A DNA stretch of 48,128 nucleotides from a bacterium. Its GTDB lineage: Bacteria > Patescibacteriota > Minisyncoccia > UBA6257 > 2-01-FULL-56-20. Of this stretch, positions 18,623-39,504 are shown one piece after another; position 1 is the first letter of the stretch, and every line of letters starts with the position of its first letter. The notes beneath the pieces are model-generated. The model was not told the origin of the DNA and ran no database searches. It saw only the letters and a list, made by a program, of their open reading frames with translations. Both the position numbers and the translations under genes were made by a program. The DNA is taken from NCBI GenBank assembly GCA_021813155.1, contig JAKALK010000001.1, positions 1 to 48,128 of the forward strand, read 5' to 3'.

Positions 18623-19087
18623 TTATTGCCTACCTTTCAGGTTTGCTTCCACGACCGCAATCTTTCCCAGCCGCCTCCTATACCTTTCTTCTCCACTAAA
18701 CGGCGTTTCTAAGAATACCTGAACCATTTTTAGAGCTTCCTCTTCTTTCGTAAAATTCGAAGCCAAACTTAAAATATTCACATCGTCATCTTTTCTCGCG
18801 TCTCTAACTTGGCCTGGAGAAATCCCTAAGACTGACCGCACTTTGGGAAATTTATTCGCCACAATATCCACCCCAGCTCCAGAACCGCAAATCAGAACTC
18901 CCCTGCTCGAGGCAGGATTAGCCGCCACATTGGTTGCCACCAAAACAGCCAAGCCAGTATAATCATCTCCCTCGTCATAACTATGACTCCCTAAGTCCGA
19001 AATTTCGTAGCTTTCATGAACTAAACGCTTCTTCAAAATCTCCTTCAAATTAAAACCCCGATGATCCGCCCCCAGATAAACCACCAT
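18623..19087 (-). CDS. rpiB: ribose-5-phosphate isomerase B (RpiB/LacAB family)
   Basis: MVVYLGADHRGF...ICGSGAGVDIVANK motifs. I start it at the internal ATG (complement of 19085-19087), because the 14 extra residues in the ORF track (MLRGGGFCLWYNLL) precede the conserved N-terminus. Confidence 0.85.
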   Translation of the reverse strand: MVVYLGADHRGFNLKEILKKRLVHESYEISDLGSHSYDEGDDYTGLAVLVATNVAANPASSRGVLICGSGAGVDIVANKFPKVRSVLGISPGQVRDARKDDDVNILSLASNFTKEEEALKMVQVFLETPFSGEERYRRRLGKIAVVEANLKGRQ

Positions 19088-19166
19088 TAACAAATTATAC
19101 CACAAACAAAAACCCCCGCCCCGAAGCATAGTTCTAGGTTGGCTTTAGAAAACTGCGATCTCGAAC

Positions 19167-21101
19167 CTACATTAACGGCGCCACTATACTAAAAGGAGCA
19201 CCACTTGAATCCGAAACGACGTTTTTACTAATCGGTTGCCCCGCAACGCTAATCTTATATTGTTTCGCTGGCACTATAGAATCACCATATACGAGCGGAG
19301 AACCCACAAGCCATTTATATTCTCCTGTATTAGGCGCATTAGTTACAATAGTCATAGGCGCTATCGGAACAACAGTTTGGCAAACATATTGACCATTAGA
19401 ATAACATTCTGGATGGTACATGTTTATTGTTATACTAACTGTTTTTATATCACTAGACGCTCTCCATCTAATAATTTGTTCGCTACCAATTGACCAAACC
19501 TCTCCTCCATTCGGCGAAAGTACTAAAATCTTAGTTTCCCGGTCGGTTTGCGTCACGTTACCCGCCACCACACTCACGCTTATACTCGTTTTAACCTTTT
19601 GCCCATTATCATCCGTCACATAAAAAACCGGAGTGTAATTCCCTAATGCACTATACGAACGTGAAAACGTTGCCGTATTTTGAGTCATCATCATCCTTGG
19701 CGCTGTTAAACCACCCAAACTAGTCGAAAGCTCATCGCCCCAAACCACCGAATAACTCAAACTGCCATTCTCGGGATCATAAGCTTTCACTGTCCAAGTT
19801 CCCATTTCGCCAGCCTTCAGCGTGGTCGGCCCGCTTATACCAGTCACGACTGGAGGTTTATTTTCTGATGTAACATTTGGTCCGATAACAAACACTCCGC
19901 TATTGCCCGAAAATCCTCCACTAATTGCATCAACCGTAATAATCATCTGCCCTTGATACTGGCTCGACAAGTCCGCCGGAATTGTCCAAGTGAAATATCC
20001 GTTATTATCAGTTTTCTCCGTAATCACATACGGCATCGGCTCCGCCATCATACATCTCACCGGTCCCACATAAAGACAAGCAATATATTTATGAAGCGTA
20101 ATCTTAACTGGTCCAATCGCCGAGAAAGTTGTAGTACCGAGAGGAGGTGGATCAATGCAAATTTGAGGTTTTCCTTCCCCCTGTGAAAAACATCCGTACT
20201 TTTCATTAGTTACTGTTGGCCAAACCTGGCTCCAGGCAATTTTATATGTCTGACCTAACTGCCAATTCTCTCCCGCCGAAGGCGAATATACCTTTATTCC
20301 CTGATTCGGAATCGGAACCGGCTTTGGTTTCGGGCAAGGATAAATCTCCTCGCTACTACCACTACCGATTAACGTCGGCGCTACTTCGCCTTCGATTTTG
20401 GTTCGAGTGCTGTCATCAATTTCTCCTGTCGCCGTGAGTCCATTTTTTTCCTGAAATCTAGTAACGGCTTTTTTAGTCAGCTGTCCGAAATAACCTGTCA
20501 CTAATCCTTCCGGATAAACTTTTTTATCCATCGCTAAATATTGCTGAACAATTTTTACATCATCTCCAGAAGCACCAATTTTTGCTTTAGCTGGAAGAAT
20601 ACATCCGTATCCTTCGGCATAAACTTTTTTAGCGATAAATCCGGTAAAACCGCCCTCAATATTCTGATATTGAAACTGCCCCCAAAGCGTCACTTCCTGC
20701 CCTTCGTATTTTTTTAAAATAGCCAAAACATTATCGTCTACCGCTTTTACCAAATAACCTACACTCTCTAAACCAATTGCATTAACTTTACTGGAATCCA
20801 GAGAATACTTAACTTGGATCATATGCGTCCCCCATTGGTTAGTACTTGGGCTAGCGACCGAAAGAACGCCCGAGAGGGTATCCCAACCCCGATCAGGAAT
20901 CGGCAGCGGAAGTGAAGTTTGTTGACTTCTGAGCGCATCAATCTGCGCTTGTAAATTTTTTATCATCTCTAAAAGCGAACTCACTTGCTTTTGAAGTGCC
21001 TGAATTGAAGAATCCGCAACCTGAGCCATAACTCGACTCCCTGGCATGATCACTAAAAAAGCAAAAACACTCAAAAATAAAACTAACAATAATTTTTTCA
21101 T
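19167..21101 (-). CDS. secreted surface protein: signal peptide, coiled-coil motif, PG_binding_1-like domain, Ig-like modules, one PKD module
   Basis: 644 aa. Signal peptide MKKLLLVLFLSVFAFLVIMPGSRVMAQ. Helical motif IQALQKQVSSLLEMIKNLQAQIDALRSQQ. PG-binding-like block GDDVKIVQQYL...GYFGQLTKKAVTRFQEKNGLTATGEID. PKD-like block PPVVTGISGPTTLKAGEMGTWTVKAYDPENGSLSYSVVWGDE...YTPVFYVTDDNGQ. Confidence 0.85.
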   Translation of the reverse strand: MKKLLLVLFLSVFAFLVIMPGSRVMAQVADSSIQALQKQVSSLLEMIKNLQAQIDALRSQQTSLPLPIPDRGWDTLSGVLSVASPSTNQWGTHMIQVKYSLDSSKVNAIGLESVGYLVKAVDDNVLAILKKYEGQEVTLWGQFQYQNIEGGFTGFIAKKVYAEGYGCILPAKAKIGASGDDVKIVQQYLAMDKKVYPEGLVTGYFGQLTKKAVTRFQEKNGLTATGEIDDSTRTKIEGEVAPTLIGSGSSEEIYPCPKPKPVPIPNQGIKVYSPSAGENWQLGQTYKIAWSQVWPTVTNEKYGCFSQGEGKPQICIDPPPLGTTTFSAIGPVKITLHKYIACLYVGPVRCMMAEPMPYVITEKTDNNGYFTWTIPADLSSQYQGQMIITVDAISGGFSGNSGVFVIGPNVTSENKPPVVTGISGPTTLKAGEMGTWTVKAYDPENGSLSYSVVWGDELSTSLGGLTAPRMMMTQNTATFSRSYSALGNYTPVFYVTDDNGQKVKTSISVSVVAGNVTQTDRETKILVLSPNGGEVWSIGSEQIIRWRASSDIKTVSITINMYHPECYSNGQYVCQTVVPIAPMTIVTNAPNTGEYKWLVGSPLVYGDSIVPAKQYKISVAGQPISKNVVSDSSGAPFSIVAPLM

Positions 21102-21168
21102 TAAATTAACAGAAATTTTTGTATGTGTGCGAAATCGACTTTTATTTATATTAAAAATATATACGAAA

Positions 21169-21186
21169 CACCTTTAATTCATTATA
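21169..21186 (-). promoter_or_regulatory. TATAAT-N5-AAAGGTG promoter/leader motif upstream of the 644-aa gene
   Basis: The minus strand reads ggggcgTATAATgaattAAAGGTGttt. The same arrangement occurs upstream of the three downstream-neighbouring giant genes. Confidence 0.35.
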
Positions 21187-21207
21187 CGCCCCAACTCTCA
21201 AAAAGCT

Positions 21208-21244
21208 ACAAAAAACCTAAGCCCCGCCTAGGACGGGGCTTAGG
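21208..21244 (-). terminator. rho-independent terminator of the 1525-aa gene
   Basis: CCTAAGCCCCG (21216-21226) pairs with CGGGGCTTAGG (21234-21244), a perfect 11-bp stem with a 7-nt loop. TTTTTTGT follows on the minus strand. Confidence 0.8.
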
Positions 21245-21268
21245 ACACAAACCTAAAAATCTACAAAG

Positions 21269-24200
21269 CTAAGGAATAAACGTAAGTTTCCATAAACCAC
21301 TCGAAGCTACCCATATCCATTTTCTCCCATCTGGTCCGGTCCAAGTAGTTAATCGATCTGGATTGTTGAGAGGCGGCAAATCCGGCGCGTTCCAAAGCGG
21401 AGCATAACCACCAAGCGGCACATAATTTGACGTATTTGCAACTGTTACGCTAGCTGTTTTACTTGCGCTTCCGCCTTTGCTATCAGTAACAGTGAGGGTC
21501 AAATTATATGTACCCGCGCTACGGAAATAATACTTGAGTTGAATCGAATTTCCGGATACTAATTTTCCGGCATACTGCGGTCCAGGATTCAAATTATCCT
21601 GCCAGAAATAAGTATCACCTCCCCAATCAATCCTATAAGTCATAGCATCTCCGTCTGGATCAGTTGCTTTAATATCCCAAGAACCGTTCACTGAAGGCGC
21701 AAGTGTGGTCGGTCCGGCAAAACTATCTATCACCGGCAATCTATTCGCAACCGGAGTCGATCCTGCTTTCTCCAGCCAATCCTGCACCGACCACCCGTCA
21801 ACTCCAGTATCGTAGTTTACGTTCCACCAAACGTATCCATCCGAATATTTTGGCCCGCCAACGATCGTTCCCAAATCTCCCGTCATTCTCGATCCCTGCG
21901 CCAATCCGGCAAGAGATCCGGCCGTCCGCACTTGCAAATAATCTCCAGTCACCCTCACCGGATCACCAATCACAAACTTAGCTGGTGGAAGAATGATAGT
22001 TGTATTGCTTGTTATATTCACCCTGATTGGTATTGCACTAACCGAATTCCCGGCCGCATCGGCCACAGTCAGTTGGACAGTTTTATAACCAGTCGTCGAG
22101 TAAGAGTGCATCTTAGCCACTGGAATTCCACTCGCCCCGCTAAAAGTCTCGGTGTTCCCATCCCCCCAAATTATTGTGTAAGACAAACTCATTCCTTCTG
22201 GGTCACTTGCCAAAATATTCCAGGACGCCGATACGCCAGCCAACAAGCTGACGGGCCCGGTGAAAGTTGTTATTATCGGCGCTCCGTTCCCACCAGTCGC
22301 ACCCGAAGTGACATTAACATTCAACGATCCTGAATCCGAACCTTGCCCATCCGACACCGTCACTCCGATCGTCTTCTGCCCCGTCGAAGTGTAAGTATGA
22401 GGCATCGAAATTACCTGACCGCTCGTGCCGGTATAAGTTGAAGTCGCGCTACCGTCTCCCCAATTCACGCTGTAAGAAAGAACAGTTGAGTCAGAATCAG
22501 TTGCGGAAACCTGCCAAGTCGCGCTTGTATTTATTGTCACACTAGCTGCTCCGGACGGGTTAGCTAAAACCGGCGGCTGATTTTGCGGATTTTGATGATC
22601 GCCAGACCCCGTATTATTTTCTCCATTATTTCCACTCGCAGAAATCGAAAACTGCTGGCTTGTCTGCTGCATAGAAATTCCAGGCTCAGCAGAATAAATT
22701 ATCACCACATAATCGTCCCGCGGCGGCAAATCAGCCGGTATATTCCAGATGTAGGAACCAGTATTAGGAGCGTTGAGTTTAATGATGCCGTAATTAGAGA
22801 GATAAATATGGACGCTACTTATGGTTGTCGGCATACTCCAACGTATTGTCAATGTTCCACCCGGTACCAATCTATCTGCTCCACTACTCTCAACATTCAC
22901 ATCTCCTTCACGAGAACCACCAACTTTCTCGAGCCAATACTGTATCGGGGCTCCTCCTCCTTCCGCCACCCAGCCACTTGGAGCTTGATCAAAATTTACC
23001 TGCCACCAACAATAACCACTTGCAGAAACAGGACCTCCATTAACCACGCCTTGATCATTATCATAGTGACCACCTAATTTATTTGCGTCAGGATTACTAC
23101 TTAACCGCTCTGGAGAAGAGCGAACATTTAGAGGATGCTCGGCATCAGTATTAATCACCTTCACCCCGTCTCCAGACTGAAATCTCGTGCTGCAAGGCGC
23201 CGTCACTGTAACCTGTTTAGTTGCCGTCGCTTTAAGTCCCGCCCCATCTGTAACCGTAAGAATTATCGTAAACGTTCCAGCTTGAGCATAAGTATGATTT
23301 ACATCTTTACTCGCCGTTGCTCCAGACAGAGAACCGGAATCCGGATTACTATTATCACCCCAATCAACAGCGTACGAAGCCAGAGCCCCCTCTGGGTCGC
23401 TTGCTGTAAATCGCCAAACTTGGCTCACGCCCACAAATACATTCCCGTCTCTATCGCCAGTAAAACTATCAATTTTCGGAGGTTGATTTCCTTTTTCGTA
23501 ACGACACACAGTATCTCCCCAAAAATTATTACCATAAACGGAAGGATTAACCGCATAAGTATTCAAGCAGTTCCACCGCCCACCCGAACCAGCTTGAGCA
23601 GCAACTCCCGCGGTAGGTAAAGAATTCTGCGCCACACTCGAAGGAATAGAAACCTGATAATTCACACTTACATAATAAGGATCGATCACTAAAACACCGT
23701 CTCCAATATTTATCTCTCGTCCCAAAATATTGTCAGCCGTAAAATCCCACTTACCTGTCGGGATTCCAATACTCTGTAAATTACCTTCAGAAGGCCAAGC
23801 ATCCCCGCCATAATCATAATGAACTTGCCACGTCCCAGATAACGGTCCGCCAATAATAACCCCTTTATCTTTTGTAAATCCTGTAAAGCCGACTCCAGCC
23901 CAAGAAGGAGTTAAACCAGCCAACGTTGTATTTCGCACTCTCGCCCCAATTGATAAACCAACTCCAGTTATTGGCGGAGTAGAAGTCGTTGCGGTTAAAG
24001 TCACCGCCACTGTTTTAGAAAACTGAGCAGTTAATCCACCTGGGTCATTCACCTTAAATACGATAGTAAAAACCCCAGTAGCACCAAAAGTGTGCGTCAG
24101 AGATAATGCAGAACCAGCAGGAGTAGTCGTATTATCTCCCCATGCCGCCTCGTAAGTTAGGGCATCGCCATTCGGATCAGTCGCCGCAACCGTCCAAGCT

Positions 24201-25846
24201 CCCATCTGCCCAACTTGAAGTGCTGTAGGACCCGACACATCAGAAATCGTCGGCGAACCGGGGTTTGCACCACCTCCCCCCGCAATCGAAAACGAAGCAC
24301 TAAACACATCTGTCCATTTCCCGTCGGTCTTATAAACAATTGCTTTTATAAAATACAACCCATCGGCCACGCCATTAGGAATAGTCCAATTATACGAACC
24401 CGACAAAAGCTGAGTTTTGGACAAATTCTCAACTATAGTTGACTGGGCCAAACCAGTCGCTTTATTAATCAAAATCAACCGTACCCCGCTAACCCCTATA
24501 GCATCCCAATCTCCCCATCTGATCGCGTACTGTTGACCCGTCTGCCAATTCTCCCCACCGCTCGGAACAGTAAACAAAAACCTATCAAAACTGCCGCCAG
24601 CATTGGGTTTCACCACACTTACAACCTGAGTGCCGCTCAAGCTCTTTCCGTTTGAATCTCTCACGGTAACCGAAACCGTGTAAGTCCCGATAGACGTATA
24701 TGTATGCCTAGCATTCACATTTTGTCCGGCTAAGGCAGTATATGTACTATTCGCGCTCCCATCCCCCCAACGAACCGTATAAGTCAAAGTCCCCTCACCT
24801 TGGGCGCTTATAGTCAAATAACTTTCTTTATTCGCTACAAGATCTGTGGGCGCGTCGATGACAAGAGAACTGGGCGGCTGGGCAGAGTGTTCAATAAACA
24901 TTTCACTCGTCCAACCCGTATATCCAGCATCAAAACTAAATTGCCACATTGTATCGTCACGGTAAGGCATTGGACCACCCACCACTGTGCCTAAAGCATT
25001 AAGTGGCAATTTACTAGGAAGAACACTGGCCGTCCCTAAATCATAGCCTGAATAAATACTCCGGTTATTCATAAAATTTTTGACCCTTTCCCCGGCAACA
25101 AACTTAACATTCGTTGGTACTTTTTCTAAAAATTTTTCTGCTGTCCACCCATCCTTCCAATAATTGTAATCAACTTTCCACCACCAGCAATCACAACCGT
25201 TGACAACCGCACGCTCGGGACCACCAATTATCTTCCCTAAATCTCCGGCATAACGCGAACCCGGATAAGAGTTGCCGCCAGCAGTCTCTCTTACATACAC
25301 CCCACTTTCAGTTACCTTCACAGAATCTCCGATTGAAAATTTAGTTGAAACCGGCGTCGGTATTGATCCAGCCGGAACGACACTAAACGCATTACTCACA
25401 TTCAAATCTATAGGATTTGCGAAATCAGACCTATAAGTTCTGGTTATTATTTTATACGGCCCAGGTTTAAGGGTAGATGGGATCGTCCAATCAAAACCCA
25501 TTTGGCCAGATCCAATCACAAAATCCTTAGAAATTTTTTGGTCAAATATAGTAACTGGAGCAGGCCAAGCAAAATCAGTCGTGACATCTACGTATAAAAC
25601 ACTTATATGTGAAAGCCATGTCGTCGGAGTCCTCTCCCAAGAACCGTCATATTGTTGATTCCAACGAATAGAAAGCTTGCTCCCTGCCTCCACAATTTCA
25701 CTCCCGTTTGGCGCCGTAAAAGTGTTGACCTCTGCTGCTCCATAGTATGGATTAATTTTAGTCTGCGCCGAAACCTTTACCGGAGAAACAACGACCCAAC
25801 TAAAACCTACCAAAGCCGCTAACGAAAAAACGATAATTTTTTTCAT
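21269..25846 (-). CDS. giant secreted mosaic surface protein (6 PKD-like, about 5 SH3b-like, about 3 Ig-like modules)
   Basis: 1525 aa. Signal peptide MKKIIVFSLAALVGFSWVVVSPVKVSAQ. Six blocks with (W/Y)x(V/I)xWG(D/G)(G/N/D)...HxY...GxYx(V/I)x(L/F)xVxDxxG. SH3b-like blocks such as FVIGDPVRVTGDYLQVRTAGSLAG...GDLGTIVGGPKYSDGYVWWNVNYDTGVDGWSVQDWLEKA. Confidence 0.85.
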   Translation of the reverse strand: MKKIIVFSLAALVGFSWVVVSPVKVSAQTKINPYYGAAEVNTFTAPNGSEIVEAGSKLSIRWNQQYDGSWERTPTTWLSHISVLYVDVTTDFAWPAPVTIFDQKISKDFVIGSGQMGFDWTIPSTLKPGPYKIITRTYRSDFANPIDLNVSNAFSVVPAGSIPTPVSTKFSIGDSVKVTESGVYVRETAGGNSYPGSRYAGDLGKIIGGPERAVVNGCDCWWWKVDYNYWKDGWTAEKFLEKVPTNVKFVAGERVKNFMNNRSIYSGYDLGTASVLPSKLPLNALGTVVGGPMPYRDDTMWQFSFDAGYTGWTSEMFIEHSAQPPSSLVIDAPTDLVANKESYLTISAQGEGTLTYTVRWGDGSANSTYTALAGQNVNARHTYTSIGTYTVSVTVRDSNGKSLSGTQVVSVVKPNAGGSFDRFLFTVPSGGENWQTGQQYAIRWGDWDAIGVSGVRLILINKATGLAQSTIVENLSKTQLLSGSYNWTIPNGVADGLYFIKAIVYKTDGKWTDVFSASFSIAGGGGANPGSPTISDVSGPTALQVGQMGAWTVAATDPNGDALTYEAAWGDNTTTPAGSALSLTHTFGATGVFTIVFKVNDPGGLTAQFSKTVAVTLTATTSTPPITGVGLSIGARVRNTTLAGLTPSWAGVGFTGFTKDKGVIIGGPLSGTWQVHYDYGGDAWPSEGNLQSIGIPTGKWDFTADNILGREINIGDGVLVIDPYYVSVNYQVSIPSSVAQNSLPTAGVAAQAGSGGRWNCLNTYAVNPSVYGNNFWGDTVCRYEKGNQPPKIDSFTGDRDGNVFVGVSQVWRFTASDPEGALASYAVDWGDNSNPDSGSLSGATASKDVNHTYAQAGTFTIILTVTDGAGLKATATKQVTVTAPCSTRFQSGDGVKVINTDAEHPLNVRSSPERLSSNPDANKLGGHYDNDQGVVNGGPVSASGYCWWQVNFDQAPSGWVAEGGGAPIQYWLEKVGGSREGDVNVESSGADRLVPGGTLTIRWSMPTTISSVHIYLSNYGIIKLNAPNTGSYIWNIPADLPPRDDYVVIIYSAEPGISMQQTSQQFSISASGNNGENNTGSGDHQNPQNQPPVLANPSGAASVTINTSATWQVSATDSDSTVLSYSVNWGDGSATSTYTGTSGQVISMPHTYTSTGQKTIGVTVSDGQGSDSGSLNVNVTSGATGGNGAPIITTFTGPVSLLAGVSASWNILASDPEGMSLSYTIIWGDGNTETFSGASGIPVAKMHSYSTTGYKTVQLTVADAAGNSVSAIPIRVNITSNTTIILPPAKFVIGDPVRVTGDYLQVRTAGSLAGLAQGSRMTGDLGTIVGGPKYSDGYVWWNVNYDTGVDGWSVQDWLEKAGSTPVANRLPVIDSFAGPTTLAPSVNGSWDIKATDPDGDAMTYRIDWGGDTYFWQDNLNPGPQYAGKLVSGNSIQLKYYFRSAGTYNLTLTVTDSKGGSASKTASVTVANTSNYVPLGGYAPLWNAPDLPPLNNPDRLTTWTGPDGRKWIWVASSGLWKLTFIP

Positions 25847-25862
25847 ATATAAAAATCAAAAA

Positions 25863-25881
25863 GACCTTTCCTATTATTATA
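25863..25881 (-). promoter_or_regulatory. TATAAT-N6-AAAGGTC promoter/leader motif upstream of the 1525-aa gene
   Basis: The minus strand reads TTGGGT-17 nt-TATAAT-aatagg-AAAGGTCtttttgatttttatatATG. Confidence 0.4.
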
Positions 25882-25947
25882 GGCAAATCAAAATCAACAC
25901 CCAAGAGATCTTATCCCCATAAACCTAACCCAAAAACTATAGAAATC

Positions 25948-28830
25948 TTAACGACAACTCCCCTTACTTACCAAAGCTAAATAGGCCTCAGCTGACCAGC
26001 CGTCTACCCCGTATTGATAATTTACTCTCCACCAGGTGTAGCCACCGGCAGTTACTGGCCCTTCCTTGATTTCTCCTTGAGATTCTGGTGGTTGTTGGCC
26101 TACTACTGTCGTCCCACCAGGAGTAGAACGAACGTTAACCATATCTGTGGGTCTCACGATGTCGCAGAGGGCGAAATTCGAAGAGCTCTCTCCGCTCTCG
26201 CCTACAATTGCAAAAGGCATACTGACTTGCTGCATCGGAACACCCTCATCGGCAGAATAGATAATGATTACATAATTATCTTTAGGCACAACGTCAGCCG
26301 GTATAGTCCAAGTATAAGAACCAGTATTAGGAGCATTCAAAACAATTAAACCAACCGTGGCTAAATAGATATGCACCTTAGTAACGTTAGCGGGGGCCGT
26401 CCAAGTAATTGTCCTCGTCTCGCCAACTCGCCAAACGTCTTGAGTCGCTGGCGAAGTAATCGTAATTCCATCTCCACTCGAACTACCGACTGGGCTAAGA
26501 TAATTTGAATTTGTCCAAATCGATGGCCAACTAGAATGATCATAAGTTACCTGCCACCAGCAAATATTATTCTGGCGTTGTGGTCCGCTTTTTACTGTGC
26601 CAAGAGAACCATTCAGTGAATTGATTCCAACAAGATTCCTACCGGGCGGTTCGCTATGGCTAAAAGGCCTCGATCCATCTGGGACCAAAACCTGAACTCT
26701 TTCACTAACTGCATATGTCGAAGCGCAAACCGTAGTCGTTGCCACCTCGCCTGTGCCAATTAAATAGCTAGGGACCTCCCCGCCAAAAAATGCTTCTTCC
26801 GGAGACCATCCCCGCCAAGCAGGATATTTTGTTGCTTCTGTTGATGGTAAATACTGCACCCTGTACCACCACCCGGTTTTGAGAAATTCTGGGTCTAGAC
26901 TAATCGTCCCAGCTGTCCCCGCCGGCCACTGCCCTAAAACCGGTCCGTTTGGAGCTACCGACTCGCCTAATACTGCCCAAGTTGGCGGCGAAAACAAAAT
27001 CTTTAAATTCTGCTGGAGCGTCACGCCGCCGCTCGTGGCCTTTGGTTTGCTCCGGTCGCTAGTTATCCAGTTGCCCGCTGACCAGCCCTGCAAACCATTT
27101 TCCCAGCTCACCTGCCACCAAACAAGATTTGCCACCTCAACTGGACCGCCCATTATTATCCCTTGTTTGTCACGATCAACTTGGCCCAAAGACTCCGGCC
27201 AAGTGAGAATGTCATTTGATATAGGTGTACTTTTTCTAACGTTTAAACCATTTATACCTTTAGGGCCGCCACCAAGCGAAACACATTCCCCTTCGGCAAA
27301 TCTTTGTTTAACCGCCAGTTGCTCGGTAGAAAGTGGCGTACACAAATCATCGAGTTGAGACACCTTCACCCACCCCACCATTCCTGTCCAATTAGTTGTC
27401 CCTCCCGCTCCTGGAGAACCAAAACCTACTCTCACCCACCAATCTCCCCCCCAAAACGTAACCGGTCCCACCATTGATCTTCCATCTACTTTCCCGATCG
27501 CGTATTTAGGCTTTGGACCAAGTTCCGGTATCGGAATATAATCCGGGGCTGGGCCCAGATAGCTCCCATTAGTTGCCGGATCTTTGCCTCCAAGCATCTG
27601 CATCACCATCACCGGCTCCTTAGTTCTCAATTTCGTGCCGGGCGCAAACCTAGCCAGCATCGCTGGATCCAAAACCCCAACCTTCATTACTGCCGTACCC
27701 TTAACCCCCGAAGCATTATCAATTGCCGTAAATTTAATACTGTATATTCCCGGCGCACTATATTTGTGAGTCGCTGTTTTCGCTGAACCTCTAGTCGTAA
27801 CATCCGGAGTATAACTGTCTTTAGAATTATCCCCCCAATCTACTGCAAAAGTGAAAGAAACCCCGCTAGCGATAACCGACAAATCCCACTGGCCATCTTG
27901 GTTAGGAGATAAAGTAGGCTGCCCATTTATTCCGGGCTTGAAAAACGCCTTTCCCCCAACCGTCACTCCCCCAGGCACATTGCCAGTTGTTGATGGAGTC
28001 ACAGTAACCATGGCCGTTGCTGTCCCAACCGCCCCCCAGGCATCTTGGCAACTGAATGTAATCGTATAACTACCCGTCTGGACGTAAAAATGGCTGTCTT
28101 CGTAATCTTCCACGCCATCGCCCCATTTTGTTTTACTACAATTGTAAGCATCTCCGTCTGGGTCCGTTATTGTCCACGTCCAAAATCCGCCTTCATATAT
28201 TTCAAGTGTTGATGGCCCCAAAATACCAGAAATTACTGGCGGCTGATTCGCCGCCGGTGGATTACTTTTTTCAATCCAAGTCCCCTCGGCCATAAAGAGC
28301 AAAATATTTGTCATGCCCGGTAAATTACACGTCACATTCCACCAGTTATATCCATCCGCTACCGTTGGGCCTTTTTTTAAATTACAACTTACCCCTGCCG
28401 GAACTGTCTTATATATAGAAGCTGAAAGATTCGGAGCAGTTCTCAAATTAACATTATCGGTAGTCACCACCCAATCCCCCACCTTATACGCGCTCGGCAC
28501 CGTGACTGGAACTTTTTCAAGACCGGTTTCGTCAGACCATCCCGTAAGTCCATCATTCCATTTAACCAACCATTTCCCGTTGTGCGGCCAATTTTGGATA
28601 ACTCCTTTATTTCCAACACTCTCACTTCCTAAAAGTGTCGGCGGTACTCCAGTCATACTTGGCCCATAAGAAGACCACACATCTAACTTCGAAACACTAT
28701 TAGCTACTTGTACTTGATCAAAAACACTAAACTTATATGTAGCTGTCTGCGCCTGCGCTTGATCGACTTTAAAACCAAAACCCGGCGCAAGCAAAACAAC
28801 TGCCACCAAAAAAACGCTAAACTTTTTCAT
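25948..28830 (-). CDS. giant secreted mosaic surface protein (about 7 SH3b-like, 2 PKD-like, 1 Ig-like module)
   Basis: 960 aa. Signal peptide MKKFSVFLVAVVLLAPGFGFKVDQAQAQ. PKD-like blocks (KTKWGDGVEDYEDSHFY...; FAVDWGDNSKD...HKYSAPGIYSIKFTAID). SH3b-like blocks ending in GWSDETGLEKV, GWSAGNWITS and GWSAEAYLALV. The Ig-like module is shared with the 1525-aa protein. Confidence 0.85.
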   Translation of the reverse strand: MKKFSVFLVAVVLLAPGFGFKVDQAQAQTATYKFSVFDQVQVANSVSKLDVWSSYGPSMTGVPPTLLGSESVGNKGVIQNWPHNGKWLVKWNDGLTGWSDETGLEKVPVTVPSAYKVGDWVVTTDNVNLRTAPNLSASIYKTVPAGVSCNLKKGPTVADGYNWWNVTCNLPGMTNILLFMAEGTWIEKSNPPAANQPPVISGILGPSTLEIYEGGFWTWTITDPDGDAYNCSKTKWGDGVEDYEDSHFYVQTGSYTITFSCQDAWGAVGTATAMVTVTPSTTGNVPGGVTVGGKAFFKPGINGQPTLSPNQDGQWDLSVIASGVSFTFAVDWGDNSKDSYTPDVTTRGSAKTATHKYSAPGIYSIKFTAIDNASGVKGTAVMKVGVLDPAMLARFAPGTKLRTKEPVMVMQMLGGKDPATNGSYLGPAPDYIPIPELGPKPKYAIGKVDGRSMVGPVTFWGGDWWVRVGFGSPGAGGTTNWTGMVGWVKVSQLDDLCTPLSTEQLAVKQRFAEGECVSLGGGPKGINGLNVRKSTPISNDILTWPESLGQVDRDKQGIIMGGPVEVANLVWWQVSWENGLQGWSAGNWITSDRSKPKATSGGVTLQQNLKILFSPPTWAVLGESVAPNGPVLGQWPAGTAGTISLDPEFLKTGWWYRVQYLPSTEATKYPAWRGWSPEEAFFGGEVPSYLIGTGEVATTTVCASTYAVSERVQVLVPDGSRPFSHSEPPGRNLVGINSLNGSLGTVKSGPQRQNNICWWQVTYDHSSWPSIWTNSNYLSPVGSSSGDGITITSPATQDVWRVGETRTITWTAPANVTKVHIYLATVGLIVLNAPNTGSYTWTIPADVVPKDNYVIIIYSADEGVPMQQVSMPFAIVGESGESSSNFALCDIVRPTDMVNVRSTPGGTTVVGQQPPESQGEIKEGPVTAGGYTWWRVNYQYGVDGWSAEAYLALVSKGSCR

Positions 28831-28849
28831 ATTATAGTTTTATTAAAAA

Positions 28850-28871
28850 GACCTTTTTATCGCTTACTATA
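28850..28871 (-). promoter_or_regulatory. TATAGT-N7-AAAAAGGTC promoter/leader motif upstream of the 960-aa gene
   Basis: The minus strand reads caatTATAGTaagcgatAAAAAGGTCtttttaataaaactataatATG. Confidence 0.35.
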
Positions 28872-28886
28872 ATTGTACGCCATACG

Positions 28887-28931
28887 CTAAAAAACAAAAA
28901 CCGCCGATTTTATCCCCAAAATCAGCGGTTT
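28887..28931 (-). terminator. rho-independent terminator of the 846-aa gene
   Basis: 28898-28911 pairs with 28918-28931 in a 14-bp stem. The single C-A mismatch on plus becomes a G-U wobble in the minus-sense RNA. The loop is 6 nt, and TTGTTTTTT follows on the minus strand. Confidence 0.75.
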
Positions 28932-28951
28932 CCCTAATTTAATATTTACCC

Positions 28952-31492
28952 TTATCTCAATTGCTCTAAAATCGCGAAGAGTTGAGCTTTTATTTGATCA
29001 AGTTGAGTCTGAATCACTTGAATTGCTAAAGCTGCATAATTTAATGGCTCTAGCCCGCTCATCGGTGTTTTTTCCAGCCAATTCTCTGCCGACCATCCGT
29101 CCGGAGCGTTCACATAGTCTATTTGCCACCACCAGTAGGTATCGGCAAATTTCGGTCCGCCGACAACCGTACCCAAATCTCCTGTATTCTTTCTCCCAAT
29201 TATAGTTCCAGTAGGAATATCTCTTACCTGCACACTTGGCGCTGTTACCCGAATCTTGTCTCCAACCGAAAACTTGTTCGAAACTTGCGGCGTCGAAGTC
29301 GGCGTATTTATCGAATCAATTTTTGCAAGCTTAACCTCTTTTGTCCAACTGGTAAAACCGAGGTCATAATTTACACGCCACGACCACTCGAAGTTGGAAA
29401 ATGTTGGCCCACCAATAACAGTACCGGCGCCCCTATCGCCAGAATATTCGACGTTTCGAACTCTGTCGCCAATTATAAATCTTGTAGAAGGTGCCAGAGT
29501 TGCTACTTGAACCGACACAGTTTTACTAGCGAGCCCTCCTCTACTATCAACTACAGTAAACGTCGGAGTATAACTTCCCGCAGTTGCATAAGTATGTTTA
29601 AAACTCGAGAAAGGTCGATTCTGGGTCTCCGTTGTACCGTCTCCCCATATCGCACTATACGACCAAGTATCGTAATCTGGGTCTGATGCCAGAACCGTCC
29701 AAGTGGCATCTTCTCTAGTGAACACACTTGCCGGACCAGTAAAATCAGAAATAACAGGAGGCCTATTAGTAATCGTTCCGCCAGAACCGGTTTTCTCAAG
29801 CCAATCCCCGGCGGACCAACCATCCACTCCAGTGTCGTAATTAATTTGCCACCACCAATAGCGGTTGTCAGACTTAGGACCTCCTACAACAACTCCTGTA
29901 TCTCCAACGCCCCTGACCCCTAATAATGGGGTATAATCGCTAAAAACATCCCTCACCTGAACATTCGGCGCCGTTACTTTAATTTTGTCTCCAGCCGCAA
30001 ACTTATTCGAAGCTTGTGGCGTCGACGTTGCCGGCATATCAGTTTGCACCGTCTGCACCACAGTCGTTTTCGTCGCCGTTAATCCTTTATCGTCAGTCGC
30101 TGTAAAAGTAATAGTATATCCCCCACTTGGGGCGTAAGCATGTGAGAAACTCTTTGAGACACCACTCGCCATTCCAGTTGCCTCCGCTTCGCTACTGCTA
30201 TCGCCCCATTTTACTTTGTAATTAAGCGCTTTCCCTTCCGGATCAGTAGCAATAAAAGTCCAAGAATTCGAAACAGCAGCCGTTACAGTTGAAGGACCAT
30301 TTACCATAAGATTTGTCGGCGCTTGATTGCCCGGCGACGTTGAAGTTGAGGTTCCATCTCCAGTAATCGAGCAGTCCTCTGTCAAACACTTTCGAAAAGC
30401 AAGACTGTAAGCGGTATACTGATCAAACGACCATCCCTCAACACCATCACTCCACTTGATCTTCCACCAAAAAATTAGAGGAGCCTCTGAGGAAAAAACT
30501 GGACCATTTGTTACAATCCCAAAATCCCCGACTGTCCTTTTCCCCAAAGGGCTCGAATCATCAGCTCCAACATAAGGATTCCTAGCAATAAAAGCAGGGG
30601 TTAAATAAACTTGTCTCTCTTCATACACCCGCACCCTATCTCCGATTCCGTATCTAAGTTTAAAATAAGAGTAATTATTATCTTCAGACCAGCCTTGTGT
30701 ATTATCATTCCACCTTATATTCCACCATACCTTTCCATCCGCATTGGTTGGCCCACCCACCACAACTCCGGAATCTCCGTTGTGTTTAGTAGCTATAGGG
30801 GTAAGAGTTATCATAGGAAAAACCCGAACATCAATACTACTATCCTGCCTAACAGCTACTTTGTCGCCAATAGAAAGTTGAGTGTAACTTCGAACCGGGC
30901 TAGATGGTTTTTTAAGATAAACTTCCATTCCATCTTGCGCTCCCTCTTTTGCCCAATTTTCCACCACACCCCCCCTGCCACCACTTGAAATCATATTTCC
31001 TCTTACCTTCCATAACGTATATCCACTAGAAAGAACAGGCCCATCAACGATAGTCACCATGCTATACGATGGTAATAAGCCTCCGTAAAAATCAATCGAG
31101 GGCGCCGAAAAAACATCCATTGATTTCTCCGACATCACATTGTCACCAATAGAAAACTTACTCGAATAAGTCCGCTCAAAACCTTTTAAATAACTCTCTG
31201 CCGACCAACCCACCATACTATCGCTTGACCAGCTAACTTTCCACCAAGTATAGCCCTCCGCTGATATCGGACCATCAATTATAGCTCCTAAATCTCCAAC
31301 CTTTCTTGTGCCCAATGCGGTTTGAGAAATCGAAGCGGTTGGCCTAACTCGCACTGCGTCGGCCGCGAAAATCTCTTCGTGAATTGAAAAACTACCAGCT
31401 CCGCTCGCCCGCGCCGTCTCATTATTTACCCCACCCCAACCCCCAACCACCGCCAAAGTCACTAATAAAAAAACAACAAATCTCTTTTCCAT
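28952..31492 (-). CDS. giant secreted mosaic surface protein (about 7 SH3b-like, 2 PKD-like modules, C-terminal coiled-coil motif)
   Basis: 846 aa. N-terminal hydrophobic signal MEKRFVVFLLVTLAVVGGWGG...ARA. PKD-like blocks (YKVKWGDSSSE...HAYAPSGGYTITFTATDDKG; YSAIWGDGTTE...HTYATAGSYTPTFTVVDSRGG). SH3b-like blocks ending in GWSAGDWLEKT and GWSAENWLEKT. C-terminal AIQVIQTQLDQIKAQLFAILEQLR. Confidence 0.85.
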   Translation of the reverse strand: MEKRFVVFLLVTLAVVGGWGGVNNETARASGAGSFSIHEEIFAADAVRVRPTASISQTALGTRKVGDLGAIIDGPISAEGYTWWKVSWSSDSMVGWSAESYLKGFERTYSSKFSIGDNVMSEKSMDVFSAPSIDFYGGLLPSYSMVTIVDGPVLSSGYTLWKVRGNMISSGGRGGVVENWAKEGAQDGMEVYLKKPSSPVRSYTQLSIGDKVAVRQDSSIDVRVFPMITLTPIATKHNGDSGVVVGGPTNADGKVWWNIRWNDNTQGWSEDNNYSYFKLRYGIGDRVRVYEERQVYLTPAFIARNPYVGADDSSPLGKRTVGDFGIVTNGPVFSSEAPLIFWWKIKWSDGVEGWSFDQYTAYSLAFRKCLTEDCSITGDGTSTSTSPGNQAPTNLMVNGPSTVTAAVSNSWTFIATDPEGKALNYKVKWGDSSSEAEATGMASGVSKSFSHAYAPSGGYTITFTATDDKGLTATKTTVVQTVQTDMPATSTPQASNKFAAGDKIKVTAPNVQVRDVFSDYTPLLGVRGVGDTGVVVGGPKSDNRYWWWQINYDTGVDGWSAGDWLEKTGSGGTITNRPPVISDFTGPASVFTREDATWTVLASDPDYDTWSYSAIWGDGTTETQNRPFSSFKHTYATAGSYTPTFTVVDSRGGLASKTVSVQVATLAPSTRFIIGDRVRNVEYSGDRGAGTVIGGPTFSNFEWSWRVNYDLGFTSWTKEVKLAKIDSINTPTSTPQVSNKFSVGDKIRVTAPSVQVRDIPTGTIIGRKNTGDLGTVVGGPKFADTYWWWQIDYVNAPDGWSAENWLEKTPMSGLEPLNYAALAIQVIQTQLDQIKAQLFAILEQLR

Positions 31493-31619: not shown

Positions 31620-32051
31620 CTACTCTTTTGGCTCCTCTTCTTTGCCAATAACTCCCTCTTTTTCAGCCCATTTCCTCACAATATCTCGAAAATGAGCCGT
31701 CCTTGTAACCGCCTTAATTGTCACCCCCGCTTCATGACTTATAAGATCGTCGATAACGTCAATTAATTGGTTCGGCCCATATTCCTCTCCCGTAGAACCC
31801 TTTAGTGTTATTTTGTTTACCCGAATAATATCCTTAAGATTACTAAGCGACGTTGCCTCTCTCATTCGCGCTTCATAAAATCGCTCCATGCCTTCTGCTA
31901 AATCTCTCTTAAAATCTTCCCCAAAGCGCGTCACCGGATCTTCGTCTACGTTATTTCCCTTTTCCCCGCCCTTAACTCCCCCATCTTTCTTAGCGTCATC
32001 TTTTTCTTCATTCTTTCCACTTGTTTTTCCAAACCATTTTTCAAATTTCAT
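31620..32051 (-). CDS. hypothetical protein, 143 aa (charged, low-complexity N-terminus)
   Basis: ORF downstream of gap in the same orientation, with its own terminator. No recognised motif. Confidence 0.6.
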   Translation of the reverse strand: MKFEKWFGKTSGKNEEKDDAKKDGGVKGGEKGNNVDEDPVTRFGEDFKRDLAEGMERFYEARMREATSLSNLKDIIRVNKITLKGSTGEEYGPNQLIDVIDDLISHEAGVTIKAVTRTAHFRDIVRKWAEKEGVIGKEEEPKE

Positions 32052-32071: not shown

Positions 32072-33088
32072 CTAAACCAACCCCGCTACCGCCGCCACAT
32101 GCTTAATCAAAGTTGAAACATACCCGGCTTCGTTGTCATACCAAGACAAAATCTTCACTAAATCCCCGTCGATTACCTTTGTAAAACTCAAGTCCACTAT
32201 CGCGCCGTAAGGTTGCCCCAAAATATCCGAAGAAACTAATTGTTCCTTTGTCACTTTCATAATCCCCTGCCACTTCGGTGAATTCGCCGCATCCGTCAAA
32301 ATCTTATTAATTTCTTCAACTGAAGTTTTTTTCTTCGAGAGAAATGTTATGTCCGCAATCGAGCCCGAAACCACCGGCACCCTAAAAGCTACACCATCAA
32401 ATTTTCCTTCTAAATCCTTAATCGCCCGCGTGACCGCAATCGCCGCTCCGGTCGTTGACGGCGTGATGTTTTGCGCCGCCGCTCGTCCCCGCCGAAAGTC
32501 GCTCCCCTTAACCGGCCCGTCTACAATCGACTGCGTCGCCGTGTATCCGTGGACCGTGCTTAAAATCGCTTTTTTGATTCCCGGTTTTTCCGAAAGAACC
32601 TGAATCACCGGCGAAGCGGAATTTGTAGTGCAAGATCCATTTGAGGTAATCAGGCATTTTTTAAGACTGTCTTCGTTCACTCCCATCAAAACTGTTTTTC
32701 CGAGTGTTCCATCCGCATCCTTTGCCGGCGCCGTAATCACCACCCGCTTCGCTCCAGCTTGAATATGCACCTGCGCTTTTTCATAAGACTCAAAAACTCC
32801 GGTTGCTTCTATTACTATATCTATTCCCAAGTCTTTCCACGGCAACTGCGTCGCATCTTTGATCTGCGAAAATTTTATTGTTTTCCCGTCGACAACCAAA
32901 CTCCCACTGCTTACGGAAACATCCTTATCCCAAATTCCGTAAACTGTATCGTATTTAAGTAAATAAGCTAAATTTTCCAGATCCCCCAAATCATTAATCG
33001 CGACTATTTCGTAATCCTTATTATTTAAAGATTGTCGCAGAAACAACCTCCCGATTCTTCCAAACCCATTAAGAGCTACTTTTTTCAT
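32072..33088 (-). CDS. gap: type I glyceraldehyde-3-phosphate dehydrogenase
   Basis: 338 aa. NGFGRIGR NAD-binding motif, catalytic SCTTN (NGSCTTNSASP), and C-terminal WYDNEAGY. Confidence 0.95.
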   Translation of the reverse strand: MKKVALNGFGRIGRLFLRQSLNNKDYEIVAINDLGDLENLAYLLKYDTVYGIWDKDVSVSSGSLVVDGKTIKFSQIKDATQLPWKDLGIDIVIEATGVFESYEKAQVHIQAGAKRVVITAPAKDADGTLGKTVLMGVNEDSLKKCLITSNGSCTTNSASPVIQVLSEKPGIKKAILSTVHGYTATQSIVDGPVKGSDFRRGRAAAQNITPSTTGAAIAVTRAIKDLEGKFDGVAFRVPVVSGSIADITFLSKKKTSVEEINKILTDAANSPKWQGIMKVTKEQLVSSDILGQPYGAIVDLSFTKVIDGDLVKILSWYDNEAGYVSTLIKHVAAVAGLV

Positions 33089-39102: not shown

Positions 39103-39504
39103 ATGGCAATCCACAACGAAACAACAAAAGGAAACGAATTCCACCTCGGCACTCATATCATTGCAGAGTTTTTTGGTTGCTCCAATCTTGAAGATAAACC
39201 CTTAATCCAAGAAGGCCTAAAAGAAGCGGCCAGTCGCTGCGGAGCCACTATTATTCACACCAAATTCCACGAATTTTCCCCTCACGGCCTAACCGGCTAC
39301 TTACTTCTAGCCGAATCACACATCTCTATCCATACTTGGCCGGAATATCACTACGCCGCCGTTGACATATTCACTTGCGGGAACCTTAGGCCGGAAGAAG
39401 GGTTAAAACACTTAGAAAATATCCTGAAAGCTAGCAAAGTAAAAACTAAAAAAATTCTCCGCGGGCGAGAGTGCGGCCCATCTCTCGAAAACCCCGAGGT
39501 ATGA
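39103..39504 (+). CDS. speH: S-adenosylmethionine decarboxylase proenzyme (small prokaryotic SpeH/class 1 type)
   Basis: 133 aa. GTHIIAEFFGC...GLTGYLLLAESHISIHTWPEY..AAVDIFTCG, including the Glu-Ser self-processing site (AES) that forms the pyruvoyl group. Confidence 0.9.
   Translation: MAIHNETTKGNEFHLGTHIIAEFFGCSNLEDKPLIQEGLKEAASRCGATIIHTKFHEFSPHGLTGYLLLAESHISIHTWPEYHYAAVDIFTCGNLRPEEGLKHLENILKASKVKTKKILRGRECGPSLENPEV

Follow-up and report, generated by a model that had tools for sequence, protein, structure and literature searches.

Contig JAKALK010000001.1, an NCBI contig of 48,128 bp that was analysed over its entire length (hereafter the window), carries four adjacent genes for large modular proteins, here termed A, B, C and D (Table 1). 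All four are open reading frames (ORFs) on the minus strand, and together they take up 12.3 of the 48.1 kb. They are followed downstream, in the same orientation, by rpiB, rpe and a split transketolase gene, and are preceded by genes for GAPDH, a DUF192 protein and SpoU; RNR, ATP synthase, MetRS, L25, BacA and more housekeeping proteins are encoded elsewhere in the window, as identified with Pfam. GC content and skew of the array do not differ from those of its flanks. The GAPDH protein is 60–80% identical to homologs from metagenome-assembled genomes of Patescibacteria (Liptonbacteria, Colwellbacteria, Niyogibacteria, Yanofskybacteria and Kaiserbacteria), a relationship by which the source organism is assigned to the candidate phyla radiation (CPR)/Patescibacteria and, within them, to the Paceibacteria type. 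The first-pass annotation, made from the DNA letters alone, had already described four minus-strand ORFs of 644, 1525, 960 and 846 codons, to which a quarter of the window is devoted, their shared orientation with the pentose-phosphate genes downstream, a CPR-like origin and the lack of a mobile-element gene. All of this holds, the gene boundaries being exact and a Pfam/NCBIfam scan of the array revealing no transposase or integrase. Its view of the four genes as one uniform tandem array does not: the ORFs are indeed adjacent, but A is a protein of another kind than B, C and D, and the synteny of related genomes places A at a fixed position upstream of rpiB and the other three in a variable slot.

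Table 1. Genes, modules and other features of the A–D locus and its surroundings, with positions in the window (HMM, hidden Markov model)
Feature	Position	Strand	Remarks
Gene A	19167-21101	-	644 aa; ORF call
Gene B	21269-25846	-	1525 aa; ORF call
Gene C	25948-28830	-	960 aa; ORF call
Gene D	28952-31492	-	846 aa; ORF call; opens the variable slot
A, signal peptide	21021-21101	-	aa 1-27, VMA/Q; heuristic check
A, N-terminal Q/L-rich helix	20922-21011	-	aa 31-60; 3-4 heptad spacing of I/L/V; in all A homologs
A, predicted OB-fold domain	20616-20891	-	aa ~71-162; AlphaFold2 and Foldseek
A, PG_binding_1 (PF01471)	20397-20570	-	aa 178-235; Pfam 3e-15, 56.6 bits (cutoff 23)
A, Kre9-like, split by insertion	19890-20282	-	local HMM
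A, PKD	19569-19853	-	aa 417-511; Pfam, local HMM; conserved in family
A, C-terminal Kre9_KNH-like	19185-19514	-	aa 530-639; Pfam 0.0021, local HMM
B, Kre9-like	25379-25711, 24284-24565, 22643-22888	-	HMMs
B, SH3b	25118-25345, 24884-25108, 23768-23956, 22943-23188, 21764-21982	-	HMMs
B, PKD	24614-24874, 23996-24253, 23204-23479, 22307-22573, 22019-22279, 21440-21736	-	HMMs
C, SH3b	28510-28737, 28306-28494, 27058-27285, 26488-26721, 25969-26181	-	HMMs
C, degenerate SH3b	26788-27024, possibly 27286-27522	-	HMMs
C, PKD	28000-28239, 27673-27939	-	HMMs
C, Kre9-like	26206-26451	-	HMMs
D, SH3b	31178-31396, 30944-31162, 30662-30883, 30404-30658, 29789-30007, 29318-29527 (partial)	-	HMMs
D, last SH3b	29066-29278	-	aa 739-809; HMMs
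D, PKD	30050-30319, 29504-29758	-	HMMs
D, C-terminal amphipathic heptad helix	28955-29041	-	aa 818-846, ...IQTQLDQIKAQLFAILEQLR-COOH
Terminator-like hairpin, D-C gap	28896-28933	-	17-pair stem and T run
Terminator-like hairpin, B-A gap	21216-21244	-	13 pairs, 9 of them G-C, and T run
GAPDH	32072-33088	-	Pfam and synteny; upstream border of slot, conserved
rpiB	18623-19129	-	Pfam and synteny; downstream border, conserved; heads rpiB-rpe-tktN-tktC
Charged 143-aa ORF between GAPDH and D	31620-32051	-	ORF call
Dockerin protein, 1043 aa	12493-15624	-	signal peptide, heptad helix, weak PG_binding_1, Gmad2, Kre9-like, PKD-like, Dockerin_1
PGA_cap gene	11221-12297		adjoins dockerin protein, between tktC and pfkB

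Module assignments cover A–D except for residues 694–789 (23480–23767) and 1470–1525 of B. Searches with local HMMs identify 11 PKD modules, distributed as 1, 6, 2 and 2 over A, B, C and D, the very figures that had been counted by eye. Pfam recognizes PKD_4 (PF18911) in six stretches of B (1.4e-48, 163.2 bits) and two of D (1.6e-17, 63.7 bits) as well as a PKD domain in C (7.7e-07, 29.5 bits, above the cutoff of 27), with the PKD_4 match of A (2.1e-05, 24.9 bits) lying slightly below this cutoff; members of the protein family to which A belongs carry precomputed PF18911 assignments. Kre9_KNH-like immunoglobulin (Ig)-like modules number six by local HMM (two in A, three in B, one in C), and Pfam Kre9_KNH (PF10342, cutoff 24.6) is significant in B (46.1 bits, 8.3e-12) and C (35.1 bits), with A at 19.2 bits remaining below the cutoff. 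The Ig-like modules proposed earlier are thus present, and the PKD, Kre9_KNH and PG_binding_1 profiles that had been suggested for testing all gave matches. For the SH3b-like modules, a self-trained HMM yields 17 clear copies (five in B, five in C and seven in D), whereas a second HMM, built against circularity from 513 modules of 146 proteins from other organisms only, finds 18 (five, six and seven, respectively, at E < 1e-3). One further degenerate copy may exist in C, raising the total to 18–19, so that the initial estimate of roughly 15 was right about their abundance and slightly too low; neither HMM places an SH3b module in A.

The order of the modules differs from protein to protein. 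D comprises a signal peptide, four SH3b modules, PKD, SH3b, PKD, two further SH3b modules (one of them partial) and a C-terminal coiled-coil helix. C consists of a signal peptide, two SH3b, two PKD, a run of three to four SH3b modules that includes one or two degenerate copies with insertions, a Kre9-like module and a final SH3b. The arrangement of B is signal peptide, Kre9, two SH3b, PKD, Kre9, PKD, SH3b and 96 residues without assignment, followed by PKD, SH3b, Kre9, two PKD, SH3b, PKD and a 56-residue tail. Pfam and NCBIfam detect no catalytic domain anywhere in A–D, as had been noted before. Membership in the CPR pilus protein family PamR (NCBIfam NF058578, CPR_pilus_PamR, a pilus system RbmA-like protein) was considered and rejected: B, D and C score 98.2, 33.8 and 27.7 bits against a cutoff of 300, and this weak local likeness is restricted to profile positions ~163–240 of 297, over the PKD modules of the three proteins. 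Literature searches on PamR and on SH3 domains in Patescibacteria returned nothing specific.

All four proteins look exported, with the Sec system as the predicted route. Their N-termini combine two positive charges within the first six residues, a 10-residue stretch with a Kyte–Doolittle hydrophobicity above 3.0 and an AXA-type cleavage site (VMA/Q27, VSA/Q28, AQA/Q28 and ARA/S30), and these three features served as a heuristic in place of SignalP. The check was positive for each ORF, in agreement with the signal peptides that had been proposed. Sequence scans of A–D show no transmembrane segment beyond the signal peptide, no LPXTG-like motif, as previously stated, and no hydrophobic C-terminal segment of the type found in sortase substrates, by which sortase-mediated anchoring is ruled out; a sortase gene was not found in the window either.

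Establishing the identity of the SH3b-like modules required indirect evidence. Pfam and NCBIfam report no SH3 family in A–D at E ≤ 0.01, a comparison of the module profile with PDB sequences returned SH3 domains only as non-significant matches (E ~0.7–1.3), and a word-indexed search with the module profile retrieved only short, unnamed proteins that told little about taxonomy. As Pfam gave no match, we relied on transitive and structural relationships. An exhaustive search of 1.84 billion representative proteins with a profile built from nine modules (A1) recovered 8176 clusters at E ≤ 1e-3, including 343 at E ≤ 1e-30. When the 62 best matches were scanned with Pfam, SH3_3 was found in 45 and SH3_4 in 19 of them, and the enzyme domains listed among them, Amidase_2 (in eight), Glucosaminidase (three), NlpC/P60 (two) and M23 (one), are without exception peptidoglycan hydrolases. 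A particularly direct link is provided by an Amidase_2 protein (P0005) to which D aligns (BLASTP 1e-13) in register with five tandem repeats. These repeats are SH3_3 domains according to Pfam (1.1e-43), and profile A1 matches the same protein in five stretches (4.4e-48).

Structure prediction points in the same direction. The AlphaFold2 model of one module (B, residues 1286–1363) has seven strands and a predicted local distance difference test (pLDDT) score of 95.5, and nearly all of the 50 PDB matches listed by Foldseek are SH3 or SH3b domains. The best of them, with template modelling (TM) scores of 0.6–0.74 normalised to the query and probabilities of ~1, are SH3b domains of wall hydrolases, namely a YrvJ model (9a7d, TM 0.74), the endolysin Psm (4krt) and the NlpC/P60 proteins 3npf and 4r0k, together with an SH3b domain from B. 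anthracis. Given the agreement of profile search, in-register alignment and structural model, the modules are, at the level of the superfamily, best described as a divergent subfamily of the SH3_3 type, for which the Pfam model is not sensitive enough. The SH3b assignment of the first-pass annotation therefore stands at this level, albeit without a direct Pfam match. The subfamily, with no fewer than 8000 clusters when proteins are grouped at 50% identity, goes unnoticed by Pfam in many proteins, B, C and D among them, so that the wall-binding repertoire it represents is likely under-annotated in CPR genomes.

Protein A has a different build, consisting of a signal peptide, a coiled coil, a predicted OB-fold, PG_binding_1, a Kre9-like module with a Cys-rich insertion, PKD and a second Kre9-like module. 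It has 16 homologs at E < 1e-130 with 45–70% identity, which, where named, are annotated as 'peptidoglycan-binding protein' of Liptonbacteria, Kaiserbacteria, Paceibacterota or the Parcubacteria group. An alignment with the 14 closest homologs (44–64% identity) contains invariant motifs throughout. The layout common to the family begins with the signal peptide, a Q/L-rich heptad helix of ~30 residues, a Pro-rich linker and a domain of ~95 residues that is missing in some members, and continues with PG_binding_1, a Cys/Pro linker, the Kre9-like module with its Cys-rich insertion, PKD and a variable tail. By these alignments, A is a member of a conserved, as yet unnamed PG_binding_1 family of the Paceibacteria. 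Other pipelines call the gene at Met25, giving a protein of 620 residues that is 24 residues shorter and has lost its signal peptide; since all 19 aligned homologs begin with an equivalent signal peptide, we favour the 644-residue version. Residues 62–245 were modelled with AlphaFold2 from a 14-sequence alignment (mean pLDDT 71; blocks outside one disordered loop average 71–91). In this model, a barrel of b1-b2-b3-helix-b4-b5 topology precedes a helical bundle. Foldseek relates the barrel to the OB folds of SSB, PriB, an OBody and SilF (TM 0.55–0.66 normalised to the target, probability ≥0.99), with E-values of only ~3e-3 to 2e-2 and no matching sequence family. The bundle resembles the N-domain of SleB (6tci, TM 0.74 normalised to the target), the peptidoglycan-binding protein 5tv7 and CtpB, so that the PG_binding_1 domain of A is recognized both by its score above the threshold and by its fold.

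Comparison with related genomes clarifies how A and its neighbours belong together. The gene order SpoU-DUF192-GAPDH-rpiB-rpe-tktN-tktC-pfkB is contiguous in ~40 of them. In the window, the gap between GAPDH and rpiB holds the 143-aa ORF together with D, C, B and A, and the gap between tktC and pfkB the dockerin protein and the PGA_cap gene. An A homolog lies directly upstream of rpiB in every locus fetched (L077, L086, L088, L090 and L091), whereas the interval between GAPDH and A is occupied by a different large secreted protein, or proteins, in each case. The closest relative (L077, GAPDH 80% identical) has a protein of 1190 residues with four SH3b, one Kre9 and six PKD modules at this position. 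L086 encodes 1745 residues with eight SH3b, six PKD and Big_7, plus an AbiEii gene, and L088 a protein of 921 residues with three SH3b, three PKD and two dockerins. L090 contributes two proteins, one of 447 residues (two SH3b, two PKD and a C-terminal helix) and one of 1786 residues (seven SH3b, three Kre9 and nine PKD), and L091 a dockerin/beta-helix-like protein of 944 residues. In some relatives without A (L021, L042 and L064), this position is taken by large ORFs of unrelated sequence. With 3331 residues in total, D, C and B represent the largest filling among the loci compared. The toolkit of SH3b, PKD, Kre9-like and dockerin modules is thus common to the clade, but its arrangement is not. 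D has only 11 homologs at E ≤ 1e-5 among 5.8 billion proteins, mostly by virtue of its PKD modules, and no close homolog of C was found among 185,579 GTDB species representatives. By synteny, D, C and B are the expanded filling of a lineage- and strain-variable slot beside the fixed gene A.

The modules themselves are old. Their median pairwise identity is 32% for SH3b, 36% for PKD and 30% for Kre9, and modules of one protein resemble each other no more closely than modules of different proteins. The most similar pair, residues 496–568 and 739–809 of D, reaches 61%, and a block of SH3b and Kre9 modules common to B (885–1070) and C (702–877) is 42% identical. Recent in-place duplication in tandem is ruled out by the low median identity (32–36%) and by the equal levels of identity within and between proteins. 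The term 'reshuffled modules' used at the outset is a fair description of such an old and mixed assortment, but recent tandem amplification does not fit.

Protein C is identical in five other assemblies (three from ENA, one from NCBI and one from Logan), and wherever their contigs reach, C is followed by B, A and rpiB-rpe-tkt, collinear with the window. B, with 1525 residues, follows C in the ENA contigs L001 and L002 (22.5 and 71 kb), and DNA identity to two ENA contigs is 99.96–99.99% over 13.2 kb. However, all five contigs stop at window positions 29090–29267, inside or beside the last SH3b module of D (L001 at 29201, L002 at 29181, L004 at 29201 and L005 at 29090). L003 is 99.7% identical across C, yet has another 3' end of D, as seen on comparing nucleotides 1–846 of L003 with window positions 29057–29320. 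This end encodes SH3b, a new PKD, SH3b and the C-terminal helix, whereas the window has PKD, a partial SH3b, SH3b and the helix. The two SH3b copies of L003 have a 112-nt stretch in common that is ~99% identical, the 3' half of the last module being duplicated. Near-identical populations thus possess two or more alleles of D that differ at module level, which also explains why contigs break at its last SH3b module.

The alternative that all or some of the array arose through misassembly of repeat-rich DNA draws on the same contig ends, on the differing architecture and nearly identical internal repeat of L003, and on the fact that the exact D protein of the window is recorded on one contig only. 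Nevertheless, we regard it as very improbable. Independent, collinear assemblies (five, at least 99.7% identical) show that A, B and C are not artefacts, all four ORFs are intact with regular module boundaries, and the differing structure of D is better explained as an allele. Moreover, the longest exact repeat in the array measures 17 nt and the longest diverged one 110 nt at 72% identity, which leaves nothing in the window to cause a collapse, and repeat collapse within it is rejected for this reason. The concern about assembly raised at the outset is therefore dismissed for A, B and C and stays for the exact structure of D; as L003 differs at this point, the D allele of the window rests on a single contig.

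Two terminator-like hairpins, after D and after B, are the strongest such sites on the coding strand, although the region as a whole shows no enrichment, with 16 sites found and 13.1 expected in shuffled sequence. They hint at separate transcription units composed of D, of C and B, and of A with or without the pentose-phosphate genes, and they make it unlikely that the array and these genes form a single operon.

D and A also carry short heptad helices at their termini, which match no Pfam or NCBIfam family. The C-terminal motif of D recurs at the C-terminus of P0018, P0020 and the slot protein of L021, and it likewise ends eight dockerin, S8 or slot proteins of related loci. The helix that follows the signal peptide of A has counterparts in the dockerin protein of the window (~15445–15531, residues 32–60) and in L086, L088, L090 and L091. 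Many secreted proteins of the clade contain such a Q/L-rich helix of ~25–30 residues with regular 3-4 heptad spacing. In the A family and in dockerin proteins it comes directly behind the signal peptide, whereas in D, P0018 and dockerin and S8 proteins it forms the very C-terminus, with the pattern ...QLxxIxxQLxxLLxQLR-COOH. Several dockerin proteins have it at both ends, and proteins of ~150 residues made of a signal peptide, one SH3b module and a heptad helix are common. The genes tktC and pfkB are adjacent in many relatives. L086, L088, L090 and L091 hold dockerin proteins at the equivalent position, one of them with an S8 protease; the dockerin proteins of related loci share these terminal helices as well as the SH3b and PKD modules. 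It is tempting to imagine, although we consider it doubtful, that the GAPDH-rpiB interval is a dedicated locus for an anchor plus exchangeable adhesins, in which wall-fixed A might dock the cassette proteins by coiled-coil pairing. In this speculative scheme, the four-heptad helix after the signal peptide of A would pair with the matching C-terminal helix of D and of dockerin, S8 and SH3b-PKD proteins. If true, it would reveal a clade-specific, sortase-free way of assembling and swapping surface proteins, with the terminal helices as a new docking or sorting signal. A strict pairing of every A with a slot protein bearing the C-terminal helix is ruled out, as the slot proteins of L086, L088, L077 and L091 do not have it.

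Several other genes of the neighbourhood deserve mention. The 143-aa ORF, which is highly charged, lacks a signal peptide and is not recognized by Pfam, and no counterpart was found in the related loci; its position is taken in L086 by an 85-aa ORF and the AbiEii toxin-family gene, so that the slot also gathers small accessory genes. Upstream of SpoU-DUF192-GAPDH lies the gene for a 503-residue protein with a Lamin-tail domain (LTD; 34573–36084, minus strand), whose position is kept in L007, L013, L014, L086, L088 and L091, and L019, L024 and L054 encode far bigger LTD proteins (1398–1656 residues) upstream of SpoU. A 482-residue protein (6572–8020, minus strand), which combines an SLT_2 lytic transglycosylase domain with a weak match to the FapA beta-solenoid, is the sole wall-cleaving enzyme seen in the window. 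On the plus strand (39103–40466), a gene for S-adenosylmethionine (AdoMet) decarboxylase is followed by an overlapping ORF for a homolog of BpsA-type branched-chain polyamine synthases, an uncommon polyamine pathway for a reduced genome.

Murein and wall polymers are the targets to which SH3b and PG_binding_1 domains direct proteins, and Ig-like modules such as PKD act as spacers or bind proteins and glycans. Against this background, we consider it reasonably likely, with a probability of roughly 0.6, that the products of the locus leave the Paceibacteria (CPR) cell by the Sec route and sit on its surface as non-enzymatic proteins with multivalent binding to a wall. Binding to peptidoglycan or a wall polymer is predicted from the role of these domains in other proteins, and related modules are associated with murein hydrolases. 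A–D probably form a sticky, strain-variable surface coat. By analogy, this coat may act as the dedicated attachment apparatus envisaged in the first-pass annotation, with the cell's own wall or that of a host as its target. Each SH3b module would bind a peptidoglycan or wall-polymer epitope weakly, and five to seven of them per chain would provide the avidity needed for a non-covalent hold on the murein surface, comparable to the repeats of Listeria InlB and Ami. The Ig-like modules could serve as rigid spacers and possibly as additional ligand binders. Held by its PG_binding_1 domain, A would be the constant wall-bound partner or neighbour, and the slot proteins would constitute the part that is exchanged, evolves fast and meets hosts, phages or neighbours. 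As SH3b modules occur over the full length of each chain instead of being grouped at one end, the chains might lie along one wall or bridge two, those of symbiont and host.

Several observations weigh against this interpretation. The modules do not reach the threshold of Pfam SH3_3 (PF08239, 27 bits), the best single one scoring 13.2 bits (E = 0.11), and the E-values of the Foldseek matches are modest (6e-3 to 0.1). Interleaving of SH3b modules along the chain differs from the end-clustered arrangement of classical wall anchors. The ligands of SH3b domains vary by subfamily and include peptide cross-bridges, teichoic acids and other glycans, so that binding specifically to peptidoglycan is an extrapolation. 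In addition, the genome is covered here by 48 kb only. Finally, the hosts to which Paceibacteria have so far been shown to attach are archaea without murein (PMC10936435), which would argue for binding of the cell's own wall or of another ligand and calls for caution.

Two other functions have to be weighed against surface attachment. The proteins could form an S-layer or an S-layer-associated coat, in which SH3b modules anchor PKD/Kre9 lattice modules to the cell's own wall and the slot behaves like the S-layer cassettes known from Firmicutes; host binding would then not be a direct function. We consider this unlikely, although it has points in its favour: SH3 domains anchor S-layer or wall-anchored proteins in some Firmicutes, including a beta-sandwich S-layer protein (bioRxiv 10.1101/2025.04.02.646754), the array proteins consist almost wholly of wall-binding and beta-sandwich modules and are devoid of detected catalytic domains, and both slot content and D allele vary by strain or lineage, as S-layer cassettes do. 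However, the window encodes three paralogs with differing module orders rather than one dominant protein, their anchoring modules are interleaved instead of grouped, and the slots of some relatives hold dockerin or beta-helix proteins of a very different build. Less probable still is a scavenging scaffold, in which SH3b, PKD and OB modules would bind dead-wall debris or polysaccharides and participate in a cellulosome-like assembly with the dockerin proteins encoded nearby. Such proteins, some with an S8 protease, are encoded in the same conserved neighbourhood both here and in all of the related loci, those of related loci have SH3b, PKD and terminal helices in common with the slot proteins, and a lytic transglycosylase gene is present in the window. 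PKD domains are also well established as aids to substrate binding in glycoside hydrolases and proteases. On the other hand, A–D contain neither dockerin nor enzyme domains, no cohesin partner was identified, although no search was aimed at cohesins, and the enzymes that co-occur with the SH3b subfamily are murein hydrolases and not polysaccharide degraders.

If the locus indeed encodes a multivalent wall-binding coat, it offers concrete candidates for attachment factors of CPR bacteria, composed of a conserved A and a hypervariable slot for multivalent SH3b/PKD proteins. To our knowledge, the means by which CPR cells hold on to hosts or surroundings are largely unknown outside the Saccharibacteria, where type IV pili matter. 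Variation of the slot even between 99.7%-identical strains is the pattern expected under host- or phage-driven diversification, and the arrangement GAPDH ... A-rpiB may serve as a marker for finding such cassettes in other genomes. All of the domain families, the existence of large modular surface proteins in CPR bacteria and the attachment hypothesis for Paceibacteria are already known. New at the descriptive level are the very high copy number of a divergent, under-annotated SH3b subfamily in enzyme-free proteins, the fixed position upstream of rpiB of a conserved peptidoglycan-binding protein with a predicted OB-fold, and the adjoining hypervariable slot, in which alleles differ by modules. 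Our results thus leave current concepts unchanged and add a well-delimited example.

Among known systems, the SH3b domains of murein hydrolases, such as the tandem SH3_3 pair of phiSM101 Psm (4krt), B. subtilis YrvJ and NlpC/P60 proteins, have the same fold and also occur in tandem copies. The modules of the window differ from them in having no attached catalytic domain, in their number of five to seven per protein, in being interleaved with Ig-like modules and in a signature too divergent for the Pfam model (GGP...GY.WW.V.Y..G.DGWS..WLEK). The Listeria GW proteins InlB, Ami and Auto use SH3-like repeats, which bind lipoteichoic acid, for a non-covalent hold on the wall whose strength grows with the number of repeats. 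Like the window proteins, they combine a signal peptide and multiple SH3-like repeats with the absence of an LPXTG or transmembrane anchor, but the window repeats are not clustered at the C-terminus and are not joined to a leucine-rich-repeat or amidase effector part. Pfam GW (PF13457) has no match in A–D at E ≤ 0.01, and it is found in three of the 62 relatives of the module family. The SH3-anchored proteins of Firmicutes likewise join an SH3 anchor to beta-sandwich modules, and their anchors and cassettes have been swapped in evolution; unlike the window proteins, each of them has a single anchoring region, and their formation of lattices has been shown (bioRxiv 10.1101/2025.04.02.646754). 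Within the CPR, Vampirococcus lugosii has giant PKD-bearing surface proteins thought to create a fibrous, sticky surface (Moreira et al., 2021; PMC8080830). They are comparable in size, in their PKD and other adhesion-type domains and in their origin from a reduced CPR genome, but belong to another phylum (Absconditabacteria), are predicted to be membrane-located, contain WD40, integrin and DUF11 domains and have no reported SH3b arrays. Another parallel is provided by archaea-parasitising Paceibacteria, which highly express extracellular proteins with peptidoglycan-binding, Ig-like and PKD domains for which a role in host attachment was proposed (Kuroda et al., 2024; PMC10936435). The main text of that study contains no occurrence of SH3 domains. 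Its proteins come from the same class and have the same domain vocabulary and predicted export as those described here, and A, by its domain description, has such a build.

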